A stretch of 64,000 nucleotides of DNA, from the NCBI GenBank assembly GCA_016786615.1, contig JAEUVX010000014.1, positions 167,334 to 231,333 of the forward strand, read 5' to 3'. Shown here piece after piece: positions 3,808-38,290 of the stretch. The translations under genes and the position numbers were made by a program. Positions within the stretch are counted from its first letter, which is position 1; each line of letters begins with the position of its first letter. This DNA is from Flavipsychrobacter sp. (GTDB lineage: Bacteria > Bacteroidota > Bacteroidia > Chitinophagales > Chitinophagaceae). The notes beneath the pieces were generated by a model. That model searched no databases and was not told where the DNA came from. It saw only the letters and a list, made by a program, of their open reading frames with translations.

Positions 3808-5178
3808 TTATACTTCCCTGTTAGGGTCGAATGCTTCCAGTTCGTTAGCAACTGCAGTCAGGAAGCTGGCACCTAACGAGCCATCAACTATGCGGTGGTC
3901 GTAGCTCATAGAAAGATACATCATATGGCGGATAGCAATTACGTCACCATTTTCTGTCTCCAGTACCATAGGGCGTTTTTTGATGCTGCCTACTGCCATA
4001 ATAGCTACCTGAGGCTGGTTGATGATTGGTGTGCCCATCAGGCTGCCGAATGTACCAACGTTGGTCAGCGTAAATGTACCACCTTGTGTATCGTCTGCTT
4101 TCAGCTTATTGTTACGTGCTGCATTAGCAAGCCCGTTTACATCTTTGGTAATGCCCAGCAGGTTTTTAGTATCAGAGTTTTTGATAACCGGTACTATCAG
4201 GTTGCCGCTTGGCAATGCTGTAGCCATGCCGATATTGATATCTTTCTTCACAATGATTTTATCACCATCAACACTACTGTTTATCATCGGGTATTTGCGG
4301 ATGCAATTCACGATTGCCTCGATGAATATTGGTGTGAAAGTGATTTTTTCACCGTATTTCTTTTCAAAAGAATTTTTAACCTTATTCCTCCAGTTTACTA
4401 TGTTGGTAACATCGCATTCTGTAAAGCTGGTAACGTGCGGAGACGTAGCCTTGCTGCGAACCATATGGTCTGCAATCAGCTTGCGCATACGGTCCATTTC
4501 TATTATCTCAACATTATTACCGTAGTTAGCAGCTGGTGCAGGAGCAGCAGCCGGAGCGGATGCTACAGGAGCAGCCGCTTGTGGTGCGGGCTGTGGTGCA
4601 GGTGCAGCTACGGGTTGCGGTGCAGGAGCCGCAACAACTGCGGGTACACCGTTGCCTCTGTTAGCAACATAATTCAGGATGTCTCTTTTAGTAACGCGGC
4701 CTTCAGCTCCTGTACCCGGGATAGACTCCAGTTCTGCCATGCCAATACCTTCTTTAGAGGCAATATTCAACACAAGCGGAGAGTAAAAGCGAGCACCGCC
4801 ATCACCTCCTGAACTGATAATTGGTGCGGCAGCAGGTGCAGCAACAGGTTGTGGTGCAGGCGCTGCTGCAACTGGTGCAGGTGCCGGAGCAGCTACAGGA
4901 GCGGCAGGTTGTGGTGCAGGTGCAGCTGCACCCGAGCCAACTGTATCTATACGAGCTATAACTGTACCAACAGGTACTACGTCATTTTCTTTAAATAGTA
5001 TTTCGGTAACAGTACCGGCAGCGGTAGAAGGTACTTCGCTATCTACTTTATCTGTAGCGATTTCCAAAATGGTTTCATCCATCTTCACGGTATCACCCGG
5101 ATTTTTGTGCCATTTCAGCACAGTAGCTTCCATGATACTTTCTCCCATCTTAGGCATTACGAGATCAACAACTGCCAT
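3808..5178 (-). CDS. 2-oxoacid dehydrogenase E2 (dihydrolipoamide acyltransferase, branched-chain-type)
   Basis: Lipoyl motif EIATDKVDSEV, PSBD motif GTGAEGRVTKRDI, catalytic DHRIVDG, two Pro/Ala linkers. Confidence 0.92.
   Translation of the reverse strand: MAVVDLVMPKMGESIMEATVLKWHKNPGDTVKMDETILEIATDKVDSEVPSTAAGTVTEILFKENDVVPVGTVIARIDTVGSGAAAPAPQPAAPVAAPAPAPVAAAPAPQPVAAPAAAPIISSGGDGGARFYSPLVLNIASKEGIGMAELESIPGTGAEGRVTKRDILNYVANRGNGVPAVVAAPAPQPVAAPAPQPAPQAAAPVASAPAAAPAPAANYGNNVEIIEMDRMRKLIADHMVRSKATSPHVTSFTECDVTNIVNWRNKVKNSFEKKYGEKITFTPIFIEAIVNCIRKYPMINSSVDGDKIIVKKDINIGMATALPSGNLIVPVIKNSDTKNLLGITKDVNGLANAARNNKLKADDTQGGTFTLTNVGTFGSLMGTPIINQPQVAIMAVGSIKKRPMVLETENGDVIAIRHMMYLSMSYDHRIVDGSLGASFLTAVANELEAFDPNREV
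4540..4935 (-). repeat. Two Pro/Ala-rich linker-coding repeats within the E2 gene
   Basis: Recurrent GGTTGTGGTGCAGG-like units encoding APAPQP/VAAP at about 4540-4640 and 4820-4935. Confidence 0.7.
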
Positions 5179-7796: not shown

Positions 7797-10444
7797 TCCC
7801 TGCGGCGTACAAGTTTCAGATCCTGAAGTACAGATGCTTTAACCTGGAGTGTGAAATAATAGTTTTTCCTTTCGCCGAAAGGGATAGTGCTCATGCGCAT
7901 TTCCCAGCAGTGCATATCGCGATAGATATTGATTGATGTGATTTGCAACTGATTGCTGTTGAAATCGTACCCGGTATTAATCCCTATTTTCCATCTTGAT
8001 GTAATATTGATATCGCCATCTACGCCAATGTAGTGTTGTGAAAATACCAGCGTATCGCTTTTTGAGAATTTTGAGTATTGTTTGGATATACCAAGAACGT
8101 AAGAAAAATTCAGGTTGAATGGAATGTTGAAATCAACATAATCATTATACCTGCCATACATCATCATACGCTTATATTCATCCGACGCGGCGTTCTTGCC
8201 ATCTTTTTTCTTGCCCTGTATGCCGCCTGCTAAACTGACACTTGCATTCTGAAAACGCATAATACCACCATTACCATCCCACATCAATTCTTTTTTTCTG
8301 ATGCCTGTTGCATAGTCGAATGCATACGGGTCGAAACTGGCATTGGCAGTCAGGTTTAATACATTAAACAACATCGTTGCAAAATTCATATTGAAATGAC
8401 TCAGGTTGAATGAGTCTGCAGCAAAGTCGTATGCACTACCGATTTTGAAGTTGTCAATTATCCGTATGTTTTTGAAACCTGTTGTATCTTTCTTCGTCCT
8501 GACTTTTACTTGCAGGTTATTGTCAATGCCGAAGTTGATTGCACTGCGTATTCTCCCAAACTGGTTGAAGCCCGGTGCACCCGGTATACTGCCTTCGTAT
8601 GCAGATTGATAAGTTGGCTGGTCTGTTCTGTTCAGGCGTGTGTAATAACCATAGTTGAAAGGATTGGCTGCATAGTTGGGCAGATAGCCAAAGCCAACCC
8701 CCGGTGTAAGCACATGACGGATGCCGGCAATTCTTCCCTTTTTAAACATCTTCATACCGTAAATACGGGTGTTCAGGTCAACCCCAGCATCAAAGTCGCG
8801 TGCTGTAAAGAAACCATTGTACTGGGTTGTGTCGAGTTTATCTGTAATGGTGTTGAACTGCTTATACATCCTCCTGGTAAGCCAGTATTCTTTATACGTA
8901 CTTCTTACAGTCAGATTGATGAATCTTGCTACGTTATATGTTGCGCTTATAGGTATGGTATGCAACATGCCGTTTTGCATATTGTCTAAGGAAATATTAC
9001 TGAAGCTGAAACTGCTGTCGTAGAAAGATGTTTGGTTGATACCGGTAAAAGTATATTGTGTTGTGATTTTATCGTACCAGCGTGTACCTACTCTTTTGTT
9101 GTTTTGAAAAGGATTGAACTGAGCTATAAAAAAGTTGACCTCAGGTAATGTTACATTCACAAGCCTCGACTGTGTATTCTGGCTGTGGCGTGCACTTACA
9201 GACAGTGAATAAGGTTTGTTTTGCCATTGCTTGGTATAGGTGATGTTTGATTGATACTGGTTCTGAAGTATCTGATTAGTATTCAGGGTGTTATTAGCAT
9301 TGTACGTAGATGTACCGGCATCTACCGAGGCATTAAAACTAACACCCGGGCGCGATTTGGGGTCTGTACGGTGTGCCCACTGTACATTAAAGTCTTTGGT
9401 GACGGTAGCAGTGGTTTCATATGTTTCCCCCATCTTATTATATGCATACCTGAAGGCAAGCCCGCCATTATATCTGTATCGGTTTGAATAACTGCTTATC
9501 ATATTGGCAGCCCAACTTCCTTTTGTATAAAAGTTAGCCTCAGCAAGCAGGTCCACTTTATCGCTGATGCTGAAGTAGTAACCGCCATTCAACAAACCAA
9601 TACCACGTTGCTCCTCTATAGTATAAGTAGGTATCTTAAAGCCCGAACGTTGCCCCTGTGTAATAGGGAAAAGTCCGAATGGCAGGAAGAGTGGTGTGGG
9701 TACGTCTTCAATATGGATATTTGCCGGCCCAGATGCTACTACCCGGTTAGGTATCAGTTTTATTTTCTTTGCATTGATGCCGAAGTGTGGTTTCTCCAAT
9801 GCACAAGTTGTATAAATACTGTGCAGGCCATAGATGCTTTGGTCGGGGTTTCGTTTTACCTGTTCGCTGATAACAAAACCTTCACCATATTGAGAGCGCG
9901 CATTTCTTACAATAGCACGTTTGCTTTTGAAATTGTATTGCAGCGAGTCGTAAGTGAATTTTTCCTGCCCTTGCGTAAATTCAGGTTTTGCCTTTGCTGC
10001 CAATGCACTGTCTTCGGGCAAGGATGCGGTAACGATATTGTTTGCCTGAAGGTATGTTACCTTATGGGCACTCAATTTCATTTCCTCATAATTAACCTTT
10101 GCATCGCCATATAATTCAAATATGTTGTCAGACATATTCAGTACAACAGAATCTGATGCATCGGCAGTTACTACTGATGGAAGCGCATCCGGCGAAATAC
10201 GGATACCAAGCGAATCTTCAAGTGCGGATTTTCCTGCTGCTGTTTGTTTAGCAGTGTCAGGTGATATCAGGCTGTCATTACGGACGGTGTCTGCGGTCTT
10301 TGCGATTGCACTGTCTGGCAGCATTGAAGGTTTTGATTGCCCGTTTGCAGTGTTTGTTAAGACAAACACAAAAAACACTACCACAAAAAAGCTAATACGG
10401 TGGTAGCATGGGAAATTTGGAATAATTTTACCGCGCAGGTTCAT
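7778..10444 (-). CDS. lptD: Putative LPS assembly protein LptD (Bacteroidota type)
   Basis: About 890 aa: signal peptide, OstA-like beta-jellyroll, large beta-barrel, YTTC and RDMHCWEM motifs. Start is ATG 10444 or TTG 10447, just downstream of a TATTTTTG element. Confidence 0.8.
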   Translation of the reverse strand: MNLRGKIIPNFPCYHRISFFVVVFFVFVLTNTANGQSKPSMLPDSAIAKTADTVRNDSLISPDTAKQTAAGKSALEDSLGIRISPDALPSVVTADASDSVVLNMSDNIFELYGDAKVNYEEMKLSAHKVTYLQANNIVTASLPEDSALAAKAKPEFTQGQEKFTYDSLQYNFKSKRAIVRNARSQYGEGFVISEQVKRNPDQSIYGLHSIYTTCALEKPHFGINAKKIKLIPNRVVASGPANIHIEDVPTPLFLPFGLFPITQGQRSGFKIPTYTIEEQRGIGLLNGGYYFSISDKVDLLAEANFYTKGSWAANMISSYSNRYRYNGGLAFRYAYNKMGETYETTATVTKDFNVQWAHRTDPKSRPGVSFNASVDAGTSTYNANNTLNTNQILQNQYQSNITYTKQWQNKPYSLSVSARHSQNTQSRLVNVTLPEVNFFIAQFNPFQNNKRVGTRWYDKITTQYTFTGINQTSFYDSSFSFSNISLDNMQNGMLHTIPISATYNVARFINLTVRSTYKEYWLTRRMYKQFNTITDKLDTTQYNGFFTARDFDAGVDLNTRIYGMKMFKKGRIAGIRHVLTPGVGFGYLPNYAANPFNYGYYTRLNRTDQPTYQSAYEGSIPGAPGFNQFGRIRSAINFGIDNNLQVKVRTKKDTTGFKNIRIIDNFKIGSAYDFAADSFNLSHFNMNFATMLFNVLNLTANASFDPYAFDYATGIRKKELMWDGNGGIMRFQNASVSLAGGIQGKKKDGKNAASDEYKRMMMYGRYNDYVDFNIPFNLNFSYVLGISKQYSKFSKSDTLVFSQHYIGVDGDINITSRWKIGINTGYDFNSNQLQITSINIYRDMHCWEMRMSTIPFGERKNYYFTLQVKASVLQDLKLVRRRDYRDAL

Positions 10445-31976: not shown

Positions 31977-33263
31977 CTACCAGCGGTCTTGCTTTGGCTT
32001 CGGTTTGTTGTTGTTATTATTATTCTTGTTGAAGCGCTTCTTGTTAGGTGTATTGTTCTGAATAGCATTCGGACGTTTTACCACGTCTTTATTCTTAGGC
32101 AGATTAATTTTCACAACATTTGAAGTGCTGGCAGGAAACGGATGGTTTTCTATAACAGGTATCTGCTTGCCTATCAGTTTCTGAATAGCTTTCAAATCAT
32201 CTTTTTCTTCATCATCGCAGAAAGAGAATGCTATACCTGCTGCGCCTGCACGGCCTGTACGTCCTATACGGTGTACATAGGTTTCAGGCACTTCAGGCAA
32301 GTCGTAGTTGATGACGTGCGATAGTGAATCTATATCTATACCACGTGCTGCTATATCTGTAGCCAGCAGTACTTTTATTTCACCTGTTTTAAAATTGTTC
32401 AGTGCGCGTTGTCTGGCGTTCTGCGATTTATTGCCGTGTATAGCCTCTGCATGTATGCCGTCTTTATACAGCTCTTTCACAACTTTGTCTGCACCATGTT
32501 TGGTGCGGGTAAAGACCAATACCCTGTCAATGTTCTTATCGTTCTTTATGATGAATGAAAGCAACTTACGCTTATCCTTCTTGTCAACATACAGTATATA
32601 CTGGTCTATCTTTTCTGCTGTGCTCGATACAGGGGTAACTTCTACTTTTTGCGGATTTACCAATATTGTATTTGCCAGCTTCTGTATTTCAGGCGGCATG
32701 GTAGCAGAGAAGAAAAGCGTCTGGCGTTTTGCAGGTAGCTTTGCCACTGTTTTCTTTACATCGTGTATAAAACCCATGTCCAGCATACGGTCGGCCTCGT
32801 CCAGTACAAATATCTTAATGTTACTGAGGCTGATGTATTTCTGTTCCATCAAATCGAGCAACCTGCCCGGTGTTGCTATTAATATATCAACACCCGCATG
32901 CAGTGCTTTTACCTGCGCGCCTTGCGGTACACCACCAAATATTACCAGATGCTTCAGGCGCAGGTGTTTGCCATAAGCTGCAAAGCTTTCACCTATCTGT
33001 ATCGCCAGTTCGCGGGTAGGTGTCAGTATCAGTGTTTTGATGACTTTGTGGCTGTTGTCAATAGGAGGTTCACTCATTAACTGCAGTATCGGCAATGCGA
33101 AAGCAGCCGTCTTACCCGTACCTGTTTGCGCGCAGCCAAGCAGGTCATTCTTTTGCAATACTATTGGTATCGATTGTTCTTGTATAGGAGTGGGATGGGT
33201 ATAACCCTCATGCTCTAATGCGTCCAGTATGGGCGCTATCAGATGTAATTCTTTAAATGTCAT
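31977..33263 (-). CDS. DEAD-box RNA helicase (RhlE-like)
   Basis: [21 protein letters not shown] and HRIGRTGR motifs; basic/Asn-rich tail. Confidence 0.95.
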
Positions 33264-33366: not shown

Positions 33367-34587
33367 TTAGCTCGGTTTTCGCTTAAACTTATCATAGCGT
33401 TTCTTATTTCTGTTTCCACCCGGTTTTCGGAAATCTGTTTTGAATTCCGGTGTCGGGCCAAACTCAGCAGGTACAGGTAGTTTCTCTACAGGGTGCCCCA
33501 GTAACTGTTCTATTCTGTGAAATTTAAACTGTTCCTTGTCATTAATGAAAGTATAAGCGCAGCCTGTTGATGCTGCACGGGCCGTACGCCCTATACGGTG
33601 GATGTAGTCCTCACCTTCGTGCGGCACATCATAGTTTATTACCAGCTCTATATCTTCAATATCTATACCGCGGCTTAGTATATCCGTTGCTACCAGTATC
33701 TTCAGTTTCTTACTCCGGAAATCTATTAATACCTGTTCGCGCTGCTCCTGTTCCAGGTCAGAGTGTATTTCATCAGCGGGTAGTTTTTGTTTTTTCAGGT
33801 CTTTGGTCAGTTGTTTTACGCTTTGTTTACTGCTGCAAAAAATCAATACACTGTTGTATTCTTTCTCTTTCAGTATGTGTTTTACAAGCGGTATTTTTTG
33901 TTCGTCATGTACAAGGAAGGCTCCCTGTTTCATCTTATCTGGCGGGCGGGATATGGCTATGTTTACTTCTATAGGTTCTTTCAGTATCGTGTTTGCCAGC
34001 TTGCGTATGGCAGGTGGCATGGTTGCAGAGAACATCAGGTTCTGTCTTTCCTTCGGCATGTGAGAAATGATTTTTACGATGTCCTCGTAGAAACCCATAT
34101 CCAACATACGGTCGGCCTCGTCCAGTACCAGATATTTCACTGCACTCATCTTCACATACCCCATATTCAGGTGCGATATCATACGCCCCGGTGTACAAAC
34201 AACTACATCCACACCATGCGATAATGCTTTTTTCTCAATAGCAAAAGAATCACCGCTTCCGCCGCCATATACCGCTATGCAACTGATGGGTGTGTAGTAA
34301 GAAACGCCTTCCAGTATCTGTACTATCTGCACTGCCAGTTCGCGCGTAGGTACAATTATCATCGAGTTTACCTGATTATCGTCTTTGGTATGCCACAGGA
34401 TATTCTGTATCAGCGGCAGCAGGAATGCAGCAGTTTTACCTGTTCCGGTCTGTGCCGCTGCAATAATGTCTTTGCCATCAAGTATATGTGGTATCACCTG
34501 TGCCTGCACAGGGGTAGCTGTAGTATATCCCATCGACTCAATGCCATCCATCAAATCATCATCAAACCCGAAATCCGTAAAGTTCAA
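33367..34587 (-). CDS. DEAD-box RNA helicase
   Basis: [21 protein letters not shown] and HRIGRTAR motifs. Probable TTG start at 34587 (MNFTDFGF). Confidence 0.93.
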   Translation of the reverse strand: MNFTDFGFDDDLMDGIESMGYTTATPVQAQVIPHILDGKDIIAAAQTGTGKTAAFLLPLIQNILWHTKDDNQVNSMIIVPTRELAVQIVQILEGVSYYTPISCIAVYGGGSGDSFAIEKKALSHGVDVVVCTPGRMISHLNMGYVKMSAVKYLVLDEADRMLDMGFYEDIVKIISHMPKERQNLMFSATMPPAIRKLANTILKEPIEVNIAISRPPDKMKQGAFLVHDEQKIPLVKHILKEKEYNSVLIFCSSKQSVKQLTKDLKKQKLPADEIHSDLEQEQREQVLIDFRSKKLKILVATDILSRGIDIEDIELVINYDVPHEGEDYIHRIGRTARAASTGCAYTFINDKEQFKFHRIEQLLGHPVEKLPVPAEFGPTPEFKTDFRKPGGNRNKKRYDKFKRKPS

Positions 34588-34655
34588 AATATATGCTTTT
34601 GTTTCAATTCTTGTAAAGATAAGGCAGAACGGGCTTATAACAGGTTTTAATACAA

Positions 34656-34683
34656 ATGCCCCGGTATAATAATACCGGGGCAT
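34656..34683 (-). terminator. Terminator closing the GyrI-like + small ORF transcript
   Basis: Perfect 12-bp stem ATGCCCCGGTAT-(4 nt)-ATACCGGGGCAT, followed by TTGTATT on the minus strand. Confidence 0.75.
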
Positions 34684-34708
34684 AAACAAACGGGTTTATA
34701 GTTACAAG

Positions 34709-34819
34709 TTATCTGTGCAGCTTACAGATGCCGCCAATGCTGTAATTGATGGTGCAAAACAGCCACCCGAAACAGCCCCGGCATATCATGCGGATGGTTT
34801 TACAGCACATAGTTTTCAT
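34709..34819 (-). CDS. Cys-rich 36-aa micropeptide not in the ORF track (MKTMCCKTIRMICRGCFGWLFCTINYSIGGICKLHR)
   Basis: Hand-translated ATG 34819 to TAA 34709. It starts 12 nt after the GyrI-like stop and ends before a terminator. Confidence 0.5.
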   Translation of the reverse strand: MKTMCCKTIRMICRGCFGWLFCTINYSIGGICKLHR

Positions 34820-34831
34820 AAGTAGTATCTT

Positions 34832-35287
34832 TTATTGTACCCCTATCTGCACTTCGGTTACATTATTAGCAGGTTGTTCCATATCTACTACTGTATATAC
34901 TTCCCTGCATTCCTGTGTCATATTCAATCCGTTGGTACGCAGCTCGGCTATAATGCGTCCGTATGTTTCATACAGATTATCCCATGAGCCTTTGTGGGTG
35001 GTTGATATGTATTTGAAGTCGGGTGTTTCGCTGATGCTGAAGCCATCAGTACTGCCAACAGGCATTCCGCTTATAGGCAATCCCATTTCAAGTGTAAAGA
35101 TTGTTTCCTTGTTGCCATCGGCACCCATATAGCGCCATATTTGCCCGCCGGCAGGAATCAGTCCCGCCTTGCCTGCTATTTCATACAAACGCTTCGGTGT
35201 ATTGCCCGAGTCTTTTTGAATGTTATGCAAAGATGTCCGGATAGTAGCTGACAGTACTTTTACTGGTGCTTGTGTTTTGATTTCCAT
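34832..35287 (-). CDS. GyrI-like small-molecule-binding domain protein
   Basis: 151 aa; FTLEMGLPI, HKGSWDNLYETY and CREVY match the GyrI/AraC effector-binding pattern. Confidence 0.75.
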   Translation of the reverse strand: MEIKTQAPVKVLSATIRTSLHNIQKDSGNTPKRLYEIAGKAGLIPAGGQIWRYMGADGNKETIFTLEMGLPISGMPVGSTDGFSISETPDFKYISTTHKGSWDNLYETYGRIIAELRTNGLNMTQECREVYTVVDMEQPANNVTEVQIGVQ

Positions 35288-35295
35288 AATTATGA

Positions 35296-35347
35296 TTGTT
35301 TATGGTGCAAAGCAACGATGGGGTAGTGACAGCCTTATGTCAGCAGC
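35296..35347 (-). promoter_or_regulatory. Promoter/operator copy A (TGACA-N6-TGTCA, putative WYL regulator site)
   Basis: Minus strand GCTGC-TGACA-TAAGGC-TGTCA-CTACCC-CATC-GTTGCTTTGCA-C-CATAAACAA; 46/52 identical to 36351-36402. Confidence 0.8.
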
Positions 35348-35359
35348 TGTAAATAATTT

Positions 35360-36304
35360 TTAAGAATAATGCTTGCTTAGTTCTTTTATCCAGTTCTTCA
35401 TCATGTCTTTGATGCTTTTCGGGTATAGGATTGTGGCATTGCTTTTGAATGTCAGCAGCCAGCTACAGAGGTATTCCGGGTAGGCCACCATAAATTTCAT
35501 CTCCGTTACATCTTTCTTTTTTTCCTCGCTTACAAACCCATAGTATAGCCGTTGTTCTTTTATATAACGTATCACACTGTTGTCAAAAGCAATGCAAACT
35601 TCTGTCATATTGTGTTTCGAACGGAAGTCTTTCAGGTATTCTTCCAGTGTAGGTGTGGCTATAGTAAATAATGTATCAGTCCTGTGCAGTTGCTGTATTC
35701 TGTCGAGCCTGAAGTTGCGATAGCCATTGCGCAGGTGGCACCACGCCACCAGGTGCCAGTAGTTGTTTACATAATAGATACCTACAGGTTCTATCAGTCG
35801 TTCATTTACTTCTTCCGAATGATTGGTATAGTAAACAATACGCACTGCTTTCTTCTGGCTGATGCTTTGCAATATATCTATGATATGGTTGCCTGTACCT
35901 GCCGGTGGGTTGGTATTGCGTTTGAAAACCTGTATAGCTCCTTCAATATCTTCCAGCATACCTTTTTCTGTGCTGCGCAATACTGCTTTTATTTTATAGA
36001 GTGCGGCCTTGTATTGCTCTGCAGTGGCTTTGTCGGTCATTTTATCAATGAACTTTTCTGCCGTTACAAAAGTGATAGCCTCTTCTTTGGTAAACATCAC
36101 TGGAGGTAGTCTATAGCCATCCATAATGCTATAGCCAACACCTGCCTCGCCTATAATAGGTACGCCTGCTTCTTCCAGCGAACCAACATCTCTGTACACC
36201 GTACGCAGGCTGATGCCGAAGCGGTCGGCTATTTCCTGGGCTTTTACTACTTTCTTTGATTGTAGCTGAATGAGTATGGCTGTTATCCTGTCGAGGCGGT
36301 TCAT
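35360..36304 (-). CDS. YafY-family HTH-WYL-WCX transcriptional regulator
   Basis: MNRLDRITAILIQLQ..ISLRTVYRD HTH, GEAGVGY, WYL domain YWHLVAWC..RNFRLDRI, C-terminal WCX-like domain. Confidence 0.93.
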   Translation of the reverse strand: MNRLDRITAILIQLQSKKVVKAQEIADRFGISLRTVYRDVGSLEEAGVPIIGEAGVGYSIMDGYRLPPVMFTKEEAITFVTAEKFIDKMTDKATAEQYKAALYKIKAVLRSTEKGMLEDIEGAIQVFKRNTNPPAGTGNHIIDILQSISQKKAVRIVYYTNHSEEVNERLIEPVGIYYVNNYWHLVAWCHLRNGYRNFRLDRIQQLHRTDTLFTIATPTLEEYLKDFRSKHNMTEVCIAFDNSVIRYIKEQRLYYGFVSEEKKKDVTEMKFMVAYPEYLCSWLLTFKSNATILYPKSIKDMMKNWIKELSKHYS

Positions 36305-36350
36305 GATGACGTAAAGATAGCCTGAAAAATATTTTTAAAAATTTCTGAAA

Positions 36351-36402
36351 GCTGTTGACATAGGGCTGTCACTACCCGGTTGTTGCTTTGCATCATAAAC
36401 AA
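36351..36402 (+). promoter_or_regulatory. Promoter/operator copy B (TGACA-N6-TGTCA)
   Basis: GCTGT-TGACA-TAGGGC-TGTCA-CTACCC-GGTT-GTTGCTTTGCA-T-CATAAACAA. Confidence 0.8.
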
Positions 36403-36414
36403 ATACAAGTAACT

Positions 36415-36924
36415 ATGACACAAATTCAATCGCTGCTGAAAGAAATGGAACACGAAGCGGCAACTACAAAGAAATTTCTATCACTTGTGCCTGCAGACAA
36501 GTTTGATTACAAACCACATCCTAAGAGTATGCCAATGAAAGAACTGGCAACGCATATTGCAGAAATACCTGCATGGATAAAAATGGTATTGACAACGGAA
36601 GGGCTTGACTTTGCTGCAACGCCTTATGTACCTACGCCGGTTAGTTCTACAACAGATTTGCTGGCACTGCAGGAAAAAAGCTTCGATGAAGGCTACGAAC
36701 AGCTATCTAAAGCTACTGAGGCCGATTTTGAACGTATATGGACTATGCGTCAGGGAGATGTTGTTTTCAGCGAGCTGCCTGTTGGCGAAAATATACGCCA
36801 TTGTTTTTGCCAGATAGTTCACCACCGTGCACAATTGGGTGTTTACCTGCGCCTGCTGAATATACCGATACCCGGTAGCTACGGACCAAGTGCTGATGAA
36901 ATGGGCGAATACAAACCTGAATAA
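36415..36924 (+). CDS. DinB/YfiT family protein
   Basis: KPHPKSM..LATHIAE and IVHHRAQLGVYLR..PGSYGPSADE motifs. ATG 36415. Confidence 0.88.
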   Translation: MTQIQSLLKEMEHEAATTKKFLSLVPADKFDYKPHPKSMPMKELATHIAEIPAWIKMVLTTEGLDFAATPYVPTPVSSTTDLLALQEKSFDEGYEQLSKATEADFERIWTMRQGDVVFSELPVGENIRHCFCQIVHHRAQLGVYLRLLNIPIPGSYGPSADEMGEYKPE

Positions 36925-36934
36925 GAACACAAAT

Positions 36935-36964
36935 AATAAGAGCCACCTGTAAGTGGCTCTTATT
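36935..36964. terminator. Bidirectional terminator
   Basis: AATAAGAGCCAC-CTGTAA-GTGGCTCTTATT. Confidence 0.85.
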
Positions 36965-38290
36965 TTATTTTGCTATTGCAATTTTTACTTTCTGATTCTT
37001 AATCTTTTTGTCCTTAATAAGGTGCAGCGCATGGCTGGCCTTTATTTTTTTGATGGATACAAAAGAGAAGAAATCTTTTACTTCTATCAGGCCTATGTCT
37101 TCTTTCTTTAGTTCTGCCTGTTGAGAAAGGAAGCCTACAATATCTATTTTATTAACCTTGTCTTTCTTGCCCGCTGCTATAAACAATGCGGTCCATTTTG
37201 GTTTTTCTGGCAGGTGGTTCCCTTCCTGTATTTCCATTTCAGTTATCGTATCTGCATCCAGGTATTTTGGCAACGTTTCTTCCTGCGATAATATCAGCAC
37301 CGCAGTACCGCTCGCATCCATACGTGCAGTACGTCCGTTGCGGTGGGTAAAAATGTCTTCTGTATGTGGTAGGTGATAATGTACTATATAACGAATGTTT
37401 GGAATGTCCAGTCCGCGTGATGCAATATCTGTTGTTACTAAAAAGTCTACAGCACCGCTACGGAATTTGAATAGCGCACTATCCCTGTCCTTTTGTTCCA
37501 TCGCACCATGATAAAATTCATTCACCACTCCTTGCTCTGTAAGCCAGTTGCTGGTACGTTCTACAGACTCTCTGTGGTTGCAGAATATAATTGCAGAACG
37601 GTTTCCTATCTGGCATATCAGTTCCAGCAGTGTTCCCAGTTTGTCTTTATCCTCAGAGTGTAAAGTCTTTACCTCTAATCCCAAAGACTCTGTAAGCTTC
37701 TCTGTAATATAGTTGAGCCTTACAGGGTTTTCCAGTTGCAGAAAATCAGGTATTTCAACTGCTTCAGTTGCAGAGGTGAGTATGCGCTTATTAACGTTTG
37801 GCAGAGACTCTATGATAAACGATACTTCTTCCAGAAAACCAAGCTCCAAAGATTTATCAAATTCATCCAGCACTATCGTAGTAATTGTATCAGTCGTGAT
37901 GCTCTCTCTGCGTATATGGTCGCACAGCCTGCCGGGTGTGCCTATCAATACTGCAGGCGGTTCTATCAGGTTGTTTTCTTCAATCTCACGTTTGTGCCCG
38001 CCGTAGCAACAGGTTGTTTTAAAACCTGTGCCCATACTTTTAAATACCAGTTCTATCTGCTGTGCCAGTTCGCGCGATGGTACAACGATAATAGCCTGTG
38101 TACTCTTGCTGTTTTTATCCAGTTGTGCTACAATCGGCATCAGGAATGCAATGGTCTTACCGCTACCGGTGGCAGAAAGCAGTACCATATCGTTATCTTT
38201 TTGTCCGGCATCCATGGCTGCAAGCTGCATTTCATTCAGCTTGTCAATCTTCATGTTGGACAATATTGTATCTACAGAGAAATTTTGCAT
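36965..38290 (-). CDS. DEAD/DEAH-box RNA helicase with C-terminal DbpA-type RNA-binding domain
   Basis: SATGSGKT, PSRELA, DEFD, SAT, HRNGRTAR; C-terminal GKKDKVNKIDIVG..IGLIEV. Confidence 0.9.
   Translation of the reverse strand: MQNFSVDTILSNMKIDKLNEMQLAAMDAGQKDNDMVLLSATGSGKTIAFLMPIVAQLDKNSKSTQAIIVVPSRELAQQIELVFKSMGTGFKTTCCYGGHKREIEENNLIEPPAVLIGTPGRLCDHIRRESITTDTITTIVLDEFDKSLELGFLEEVSFIIESLPNVNKRILTSATEAVEIPDFLQLENPVRLNYITEKLTESLGLEVKTLHSEDKDKLGTLLELICQIGNRSAIIFCNHRESVERTSNWLTEQGVVNEFYHGAMEQKDRDSALFKFRSGAVDFLVTTDIASRGLDIPNIRYIVHYHLPHTEDIFTHRNGRTARMDASGTAVLILSQEETLPKYLDADTITEMEIQEGNHLPEKPKWTALFIAAGKKDKVNKIDIVGFLSQQAELKKEDIGLIEVKDFFSFVSIKKIKASHALHLIKDKKIKNQKVKIAIAK

Follow-up and report, generated by a model that had tools for sequence, protein, structure and literature searches.

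Activators that carry a WYL domain and respond to DNA damage are already known from Actinobacteria, Caulobacter and Moraxellaceae. In the actinobacterial PafBC, the PafB subunit recognises the guanines of GTC through R46 and R50, and PafBC promoters follow the pattern tGTCgg-N10-tA-N3-T, which lacks a -35 element and places the C of GTC 12 nt away from the -10 box T (PMC8635444). SiwR of M. smegmatis is a WYL activator of the divergent dinS operon of the DinB superfamily; it acts at a palindrome at -26 and binds single-stranded DNA (ssDNA) through R204/R207, and its R38 and R42 are essential (PMC10693628). DriD of Caulobacter crescentus reads GxC with R37/R41 in the sequence ATACGAC-N7-GTCGTAT (PMC10853764). 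A YafY-type WYL regulator has also been found by comparative genomics beside EVE, SRPBCC or VOC genes, an arrangement that was interpreted as ligand-activated resistance (Bell et al., 2020; PMC7641849). Here we describe a 64,000-nt stretch of a Flavipsychrobacter sp. genome (assembly GCA_016786615.1, contig JAEUVX010000014.1, positions 167,334 to 231,333; hereafter the window), in which a gene for a helix-turn-helix (HTH)-WYL-WCX regulator is flanked by two copies of a module combining a palindrome with a Bacteroidota -7 box. We infer from the sequence, with a probability of about 0.6, that this WYL regulator senses nucleic acid and activates a dispersed genotoxin/DNA-damage regulon, as the counterpart in Bacteroidota of PafBC, SiwR, DriD and DdaA; the inference covers its binding, the direction of regulation and the signal. 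A literature search found no account of such a regulon under a WYL/YafY protein in Bacteroidota, of the operator and the promoters built around it, or of these gene combinations, and what sets the locus apart from the known systems is a conserved non-consensus -7 box.

The regulator gene belongs to a four-gene cassette of 2.3 kb that sits between two DEAD-box helicase genes. A gene for a DinB-family protein is divergent from it, while a GyrI-like gene and a small open reading frame (ORF) are co-directional with it (Table 1). Pfam agreed with the identities that a preliminary description of the locus had given to the regulator, the GyrI-like and the DinB genes. The N-terminal winged HTH is present (HTH_11, 3.5e-16, residues 6-58), the WYL domain (4.8e-21, residues 143-206) aligns with those of PafBC, CapW and BrxR, and the WCX domain scored 23.9 bits, exactly at its cutoff of 23.9. 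In a profile search against solved structures PafBC was the closest match (1.7e-22) and DriD was also found (5e-7; 8tp8, residues 84-309), whereas the matches to CapW (1.3e-8) and BrxR (2.5e-8) were both restricted to the WYL domain. NCBIfam holds no specific family for any of the four cassette proteins.

The sequence TGACA-N6-TGTCA has exactly two matches in the 64 kb of the window, at 35327-35342 and 36356-36371, where 0.08 would be expected; none of 100 shuffled sequences had two or more. The preliminary description had reported a duplicated 52-bp element around these palindromes. The duplication is real, but the repeat is longer, comprising two inverted 82-nt arms (35287-35368 and 36330-36411; 82% complementary) that flank the WYL gene. 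Each extends from A/T-rich sequence 5' of the palindrome until shortly before the start codon. On re-reading, the palindromes, the 11-nt gap that follows them, the octamer TTGCTTTG and the TATCTTTA 7 nt before the WYL ATG were all as stated there. The DinB transcript is predicted to start near 36395-36398. The WYL mRNA, for its part, is predicted to be near-leaderless: a T..TTT. box, which is TATCTTTA in the window and often TTAATTTG in other genomes, ends 4-10 nt 5' of the start codon in 35 of 81 homologues. The sole match with one mismatch, at 10262, has no -7 box behind it and was rejected as a third site. A known RNA element was likewise rejected, as an Rfam scan of 34500-37100 with E up to 10 returned nothing at either repeat and weak matches on the terminator hairpins alone. 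A scan for sigma-70-type promoters gave 7 matches against 7.1 expected, a promoter type that is not applicable to Bacteroidota.

To follow the module through related genomes, an alignment of the regulator with 14 homologues (A2) was used to fetch 80 loci from species-representative genomes. The preliminary description had taken the duplicated element for a promoter with its operator, and its own check, a search for orthologous loci that lack the motif, did not refute this: an exact TGACA-N6-TGTCA lies shortly 3' of the WYL gene in 61 of the 80 loci, usually at 20-60 nt and at up to a few hundred. These 61 loci span Chitinophagales, Sphingobacteriales (Mucilaginibacter, Pedobacter, Daejeonella), Cytophagales (Dyadobacter, Emticicia, Flectobacillus) and one metagenome-assembled genome (MAG) of Flavobacterium, and the WYL proteins of the module-bearing relatives are only about 50% identical to the query. 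By its best matches the organism is an uncultured member of Chitinophagales. The MAGs UBA1935 and UWPOB_CHIT7 are the closest genomes, their WYL proteins being 91-92% identical to the query, and the locus occurs in freshwater, bioreactor and wastewater metagenomes.

We anchored 68 sites on TGACA-N6-TGTCA alone and then read the conservation around them. It can be seen that conservation extends well outside the anchor: C and T at -3/-2 are invariant, followed by R at -1 and by C at 0 (61/68); the spacer reads TA-G-G-G-Y, with G10 in 66 of 68; and TTTG starts exactly 15 nt after TGTCA in 61 sites. The 8-mer ending in this TTTG is TTnnTTTG in 62 of 68, so that position 29 is T and the consensus A is missing. 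Upstream of other ORFs in the same loci, where NNnnTTTG was taken as a baseline, TA is the commonest dinucleotide (25%, vs 17% for TT). Start codons follow 15-45 nt downstream. The consensus module is therefore CTRC-TGACATAGGGY-TGTCA, a fixed 11 nt and TTnnTTTG. Judged by this conservation, it has the build of a promoter with its own operator, in which the -7 box is present and the operator stands, at a fixed distance from the box, where a -33 element would be; by the same count the missing A, already remarked on in the window, characterises the whole family and is no peculiarity of that locus. Each window copy has its own orthologue in loci L001-L004, with copy-specific differences, and the duplication is therefore old.

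Among 54 proteins encoded downstream of the module in these genome loci, Pfam found DinB/DinB_2 in 18, AHSA1/SRPBCC in 14, EVE and GyrI-like in 10 each and DoxX in one. In L044 (about 4951-5155) identical tandem units of about 65 nt (…cagtcgcccgcgtcccgcgggtgaccactatccccacagcctctggctgtatacaaaaactat…) lie 3' of the WYL stop in place of the operator region, and in L068 (4957-6044), a Chitinophaga pinensis MAG, two tandem modules follow one WYL gene; a GyrI-like/Cass2 gene stands behind the first of them and a DinB gene behind the second.

Metagenome contigs were scanned for TGACATANNGYTGTCA-N11-TTNNTTTG, which gave at least 120 stretches; the matches listed contain 121 sites, and all metagenomic counts given here and below are among those listed matches. 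A WYL gene lies directly upstream on the same strand at 32 sites and is divergent at one, while 58 sites have no WYL gene within at least 1 kb of upstream sequence and 30 are too near a contig end to judge. Thus 33 of the 91 evaluable sites (36%) adjoin a WYL gene, which is a strong enrichment, and 58 do not. Since the CTRC flank is kept at the unlinked sites, although it was not part of the search pattern, we regard them as genuine, and one contig of 1.26 Mb holds both a linked and an unlinked site. The locus had been called a self-contained regulon, and this part of the preliminary description did not hold, as the sites without a nearby WYL gene include those of uvrB and of AlkZ-like glycosylase genes. 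Because the module precedes so many genes that have no WYL gene nearby, the window locus is, as far as the distribution of sites can tell, the regulator together with a local part, of two members, of a dispersed regulon.

The 111 proteins encoded downstream of the metagenomic sites comprise, by Pfam, 60 DinB, 14 GyrI-like and 5-8 glyoxalase/VOC proteins, the WYL gene itself in 4-5 cases, three each of AlkZ-like DNA glycosylase, AHSA1 and EVE, and two each of UvrB, outer-membrane efflux protein, TetR and DoxX; the uvrB, AlkZ-like and autoregulated sites were inspected by eye. DinB is the commonest family behind the operator in both the genome loci and the metagenomic sites. EVE and SRPBCC targets are always next to a WYL gene, whereas UvrB, AlkZ-like and most DinB targets are not. 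Genotoxin resistance is a known function both of AlkZ and of the cyclopropane hydrolases of the GyrI-like type (PMC9854587), and a role for the regulon in genotoxin/electrophile defence, which had been proposed from the window alone, is plausible in view of the target families. In L091, L118, L121, L150 and L176 the WYL gene carries a full module about 100-180 nt 5' of its own start in addition to the proximal -7 box, an arrangement that suggests autoregulation of some WYL genes, as described for DriD. In locus L163, which contains no WYL gene, two modules are arranged divergently.

Three independent lines, namely co-location, reading code and register, point to the WYL protein as the candidate binder of the operator. 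With respect to co-location, the site stands at the 3' end of the WYL gene in the genome loci whatever the family of the target. As to the reading code, the recognition helix ISLR34TVYR38D is invariant in A2, R38 aligns with R50 of PafB, and the half-sites TGACA and TGTCA contain GAC and GTC triplets. The register agrees as well: the C of TGTCA lies 12 nt away from the T that opens TTnnTTTG, and an alignment that sets the TT of this box against -12/-11 of a -10 hexamer places TGTCA at about -28 to -24, which is the '-26 element' of PafBC. A single regulator gene and an operator with two half-sites suggest that a homodimer would occupy the palindrome. In the WYL domain, the stretch Y195-R196-N-F-R199-L-D-R202 is invariant in A2 and nearly identical to that of PafBC (YRNFRLDRI vs VRNFRLDRV); the arginines presumed to be equivalent bind ssDNA in DriD (PMC10853764) and in SiwR (PMC10693628; R204/R207).

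PafBC and SiwR had been named as precedents for the locus, as they indeed are. PafBC is the best match among solved structures and shares with the present system a WYL regulator with a nearly identical arginine cluster in that domain, the arginine pair that reads GTC in PafB, promoters without a -35/-33 element in which GTC lies 12 nt from the -10/-7 box (tGTCgg-N10-tA-N3-T vs TGTCA-N11-TTnnTTTG) and a dispersed DNA-damage regulon, which is predicted here. However, PafBC is a heterodimer or fusion in which PafB alone reads the DNA at a single half-site, whereas one gene and a palindrome here imply a homodimer. The polymerase in Bacteroidota is of the sigma-A type and recognises a -7 TAnnTTTG box, which in the module is itself non-consensus, and the regulon is dominated by detoxification-type genes, with no recA or other SOS-type repair genes among the matches listed. 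Of the hallmarks of 'sigma adaptation' promoters, the absence of a -35/-33 element and a fixed element at about -26 are therefore found here, while a canonical -10 element is not.

The likeness to SiwR is one of layout. Both are HTH-WYL proteins, homodimeric in the case of SiwR, that are divergent from DinB-superfamily genes, and SiwR activates under genotoxic stress from an imperfect palindrome between -35 and -10. In the window, the divergent WYL/DinB pair with a palindrome in the shared promoter region reproduces the SiwR/dinS layout, and it is conserved in L001-L004. SiwR belongs to another phylum, has another operator and is known for its adjacent operon only, whereas the module has widespread unlinked sites and, in the window, a second co-directional target made up of the GyrI-like gene and the small ORF. 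DriD is likewise a homodimeric HTH-WYL-WCX activator with a GAC...GTC palindrome and ssDNA as effector, and it binds its own promoter (PMC10853764). It is remoter in sequence than PafBC, its targets are recA, didA and similar genes, and its operator has GAC-N7-GTC with an AT-rich spacer, in contrast to GAC-N8-GTC with a G-rich oriented spacer here. DdaA of Moraxellaceae, a WYL activator of a dispersed DNA-damage regulon, was also first recognised from a conserved promoter motif, but is placed in a separate WYL clade, and its regulon includes restriction-modification and CRISPR-Cas genes (PMC12392091); no defence genes were seen behind the Bacteroidota operator among the matches listed. The YafY-EVE-SRPBCC association was known from the study of Bell et al. 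(PMC7641849), whose passages on WYL or YafY make no mention of an operator, of promoter architecture, of unlinked sites or of a link with uvrB or AlkZ.

These comparisons lead us to propose the following mechanism. Target promoters would be hybrids with a Bacteroidota -7 box, bearing T for the consensus A, and with the 20-bp operator CTRC-TGACA-TAGGGY-TGTCA in place of a -33 element. Two recognition helices (R34-x3-R38) would each recognise one half-site by its GAC or GTC triplet, and the WYL domain would bind a ligand, most likely single-stranded nucleic acid arising from DNA damage. The ligand-bound dimer would then let the housekeeping RNA polymerase initiate at promoters that are otherwise weak. 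In the window this would switch on the DinB-family protein, the GyrI-like protein and the small peptide; elsewhere the unlinked regulon would extend to DinB families, GyrI-like, VOC/glyoxalase, SRPBCC and EVE proteins, an AlkZ-like glycosylase, uvrB, efflux components and some WYL genes.

The direction of regulation is the part of this proposal with the most serious competitor. The same regulator and operator could serve repression, with the WYL protein blocking RNA polymerase over the -33 region until a ligand releases it. Operators over the -33/-35 region are typical of repressors too, and WYL repressors exist (BrxR and CapW). These are HTH-WYL-WCX proteins that align with the WYL domain of the regulator, and in the module the place of a -33 element is taken up by the operator. 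The contigs of a bioreactor metatranscriptome (X27) cover the DinB gene (depth 31-44) about as deeply as the WYL gene (about 29) under no known stress. We nevertheless favour activation, since the spacing is fixed to the base pair (exact in 61/68, and in the register of an activator, PafBC), a -33 element is absent and the -7 box is systematically below consensus, whereas repressed promoters are usually strong; moreover, the closest full-length solved relatives, PafBC and DriD, are activators, while BrxR and CapW match in the WYL domain only. No defence system adjoins the regulator. A defence repressor of the BrxR/CapW type was also considered for the locus itself and rejected: the neighbours are DinB, GyrI-like and DEAD-box helicase genes, and PADLOC returned generic WYL models for the regulator and nothing for the neighbours. 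On balance repression seems improbable, at less than half the weight that we give to activation. Slightly less probable again, to our mind, is a drug-resistance switch in which the ligand is a small-molecule xenobiotic or antibiotic and not ssDNA. Most of the listed targets do have small-molecule-binding or detoxifying folds (GyrI-like, SRPBCC/AHSA1, VOC, DinB, DoxX, TetR and outer-membrane efflux proteins), and ligand-activated antibiotic resistance is what Bell et al. (PMC7641849) proposed for YafY-EVE-SRPBCC neighbourhoods; yet the presumed counterpart of the ssDNA-binding arginine/tyrosine cluster of PafBC, DriD and SiwR is invariant here, uvrB and AlkZ-like DNA glycosylase genes bear the operator, and all characterised activators of the class sense ssDNA.

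That the palindrome belongs to some other factor, for example a dimer of the CRP/FNR type, which uses 5-6-5 palindromes, with the WYL gene as a mere frequent neighbour, we consider very unlikely. The case for recognition by the WYL protein is drawn from sequence comparison, well over half of the evaluable metagenomic sites do not adjoin a WYL gene, and some WYL homologues lack the site; but a chance neighbour would hardly be followed by the site right after its stop codon in 61 of 80 genomes whatever the downstream family, adjoin 36% of the metagenomic sites and in some cases bear the site in its own promoter, and the GAC/GTC cores suit the R-x3-R helix code common to PafB and DriD. A LexA-like SOS box was rejected as an identity for the motif: the boxes published for Bacteroidetes (GGA-N5-TCC and CTAA-N5-TTAG; PMC8565304) differ from TGACA-N6-TGTCA, and the terms WYL and uvrB are absent from that paper. 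Scarcely credible, finally, is the idea that the 52-82-bp repeat plays no part in regulation and is just a small mobile repeat or the outcome of a recent duplication within the locus. The window copies are more alike over their 82 nt than the operator alone needs, but the separate orthologues in L001-L004 make the duplication an old one, no Rfam family matches the region, and across the phylum just the operator and the -7 box are conserved, at fixed spacing and always 15-45 nt before a start codon.

Several observations weigh against the activator proposal, or against its simplest form. The operator is asymmetric, with the invariant CTRC on the distal side only and a G-rich spacer that is oriented, which a simple symmetric dimer does not explain; a direct repeat of G-Y-TG-W-CA, with a period of 11 bp, is an equally good description of it. 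In 19 of the 80 close homologues no operator was found within 4 kb, searching both sides of the WYL gene and allowing up to 2 mismatches. Classical DNA-repair genes account for just five of the 111 proteins downstream of the listed metagenomic sites, and the majority are detoxification-type proteins of unknown substrate. The direction of regulation is read from promoter anatomy and from relatives, and the -7 box is non-canonical where PafBC promoters have a canonical -10, which leaves the analogy incomplete. No terminator separates the WYL stop from operator 2, 13 nt away, so that transcription may continue from the regulator gene into the GyrI-like one. Lastly, metatranscriptome contigs attest transcription of the WYL and DinB genes, though they yield no transcript ends, and those of X27 do not cover the GyrI-like unit, which is not what simple co-regulation predicts; as these are unstranded assemblies that may include DNA, and assembled metatranscriptome contigs are the only such source for the locus, we gave them little weight. 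In another run (X28), the match of a 2995-nt contig (depth 166) is confined to 275 nt of the DinB gene (36411-36685), with divergence upstream of 36411; a near-identical DinB gene therefore lies in another context in another strain, where it is highly represented.

The remaining features of the cassette concern its targets and boundaries. The nearest structures to the DinB-family protein are 3di5 and 3gor, DinB-like putative metal-dependent hydrolases, and those to the GyrI-like protein are 9rtm and CTR107. Orthologues of the GyrI-like gene stand 3' of the operator in L001-L008 and L013, and the exact order DinB, WYL, GyrI-like, small ORF is restricted, among the 80 related loci, to L001-L004. 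The small ORF had no match in Pfam, NCBIfam or PADLOC. It is kept in L001-L005 at 32-36 amino acids (aa), beginning from a few to about 25 nt from the GyrI-like stop and followed by a hairpin, with a conserved N-terminal core MKT..C..I.MICRGC.GW and a variable C-terminus, and it is probably a real small gene that is translated. The description of its product as a Cys-peptide fits this genome and not the family: a Cys-rich ORF exists and is retained as an ORF in five relatives, but the number of cysteines is not conserved, falling from 7 to 2. In L006 and L013 short cationic ORFs of 26 and 17 aa (…LKWIIKLLKNC… and …KVLKWVLKNIFC) replace it after the GyrI-like stop, which hints at a recurrent small amphipathic peptide partner for this GyrI-like subfamily. 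Both target units had been said to end in terminators, and both hairpins passed a terminator-like scan, the one at 36935-36964 on both strands; an equivalent of the 34656-34683 hairpin was found 3' of the small ORF in L001-L004.

Three DEAD-box RNA helicase genes surround the cassette (31977-33263, 33367-about 34600 and 36965-38290), one of them with a DbpA RNA-binding domain. The same neighbours are found around it in L001-L003 and have no evident link to the regulon. In L001 (5655-6650), as well as in L002 and L003, the terminator of the small ORF is set apart from the DEAD-box helicase gene by an additional stretch of about 1.2 kb that the window does not have; this stretch carries, on the opposite strand, a 331-aa ORF for a secreted-looking protein.

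Table 1. Coordinates of the cassette features in the window (positions are those of the 64,000-nt stretch)
Feature	Position	Strand	Basis
HTH-WYL-WCX transcription factor, 314 aa, 'YafY family', predicted regulator	35360..36304	-	Pfam and profile search
DinB-family protein, 169 aa, target 1	36415..36924	+	Pfam DinB 1.1e-11, DinB_2 7e-6
GyrI-like small-molecule-binding protein, 151 aa, target 2	34832..35287	-	Pfam GyrI-like 2.5e-9
Small ORF, 36 aa, 7 Cys, 12 nt 3' of the GyrI-like stop	34709..34819	-	ORF kept in relatives
Putative operator 1, CTGT-TGACATAGGGCTGTCA, divergent WYL/DinB intergenic region	36352..36371	+	Exact palindrome; fits the 68-site consensus; conserved in L001-L004
Putative operator 2, CTGC-TGACATAAGGCTGTCA, begins 13 nt past the WYL stop	35327..35346	-	Exact palindrome; position shared by 61/80 loci
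Putative -7 box TTGCTTTG of the DinB promoter, 11 nt after the palindrome	36383..36390	+	Spacing and TTnnTTTG
Putative -7 box TTGCTTTG of the GyrI-like operon promoter	35308..35315	-	Geometry as for operator 1
Putative -7 box TATCTTTA of the WYL gene, 7 nt 5' of the ATG	36312..36319	-	Read from the sequence; conserved in L001-L004
Terminator-like hairpin closing the GyrI-like/small-ORF unit	34656..34683	-	12-bp stem with 7 GC pairs, tail TTGTATT
Bidirectional terminator-like hairpin between the DinB gene and the convergent DbpA helicase gene	36935..36964	.	12-13 bp stem, T-rich tail on both strands

A more far-reaching version of the activator proposal, which we put forward tentatively, is that of a phylum-wide, LexA-independent genotoxin/DNA-damage regulon of Bacteroidota, in which the WYL activator replaces -33 recognition by the housekeeping sigma factor and the crippled -7 boxes are silent without it. 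This would be a PafBC-like 'sigma adaptation' on a very different polymerase, set by a T at the second position of TAnnTTTG, and it would join nucleotide excision repair (uvrB) and crosslink glycosylases (AlkZ-like) with DinB, GyrI-like, VOC, SRPBCC and EVE proteins against natural-product genotoxins. The DNA-damage regulators described in Bacteroidota are LexA-like repressors only, with boxes upstream of homologues of translesion polymerases (DinB/UmuC) and of UmuD (PMC8565304). A WYL regulon of the kind proposed here, if true, would be a second, SOS-independent pathway in the phylum, with an operator of 20 bp recognisable by eye, and the agreement in register with PafBC suggests that replacement of an upstream promoter element by a WYL dimer is an ancient and portable mechanism. 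It would also give a functional context to hundreds of DinB, GyrI-like, SRPBCC, EVE and VOC genes of unknown role in Bacteroidota from soil, water and wastewater, for which the motif offers a simple search key to candidate genotoxin-resistance genes in metagenomes.

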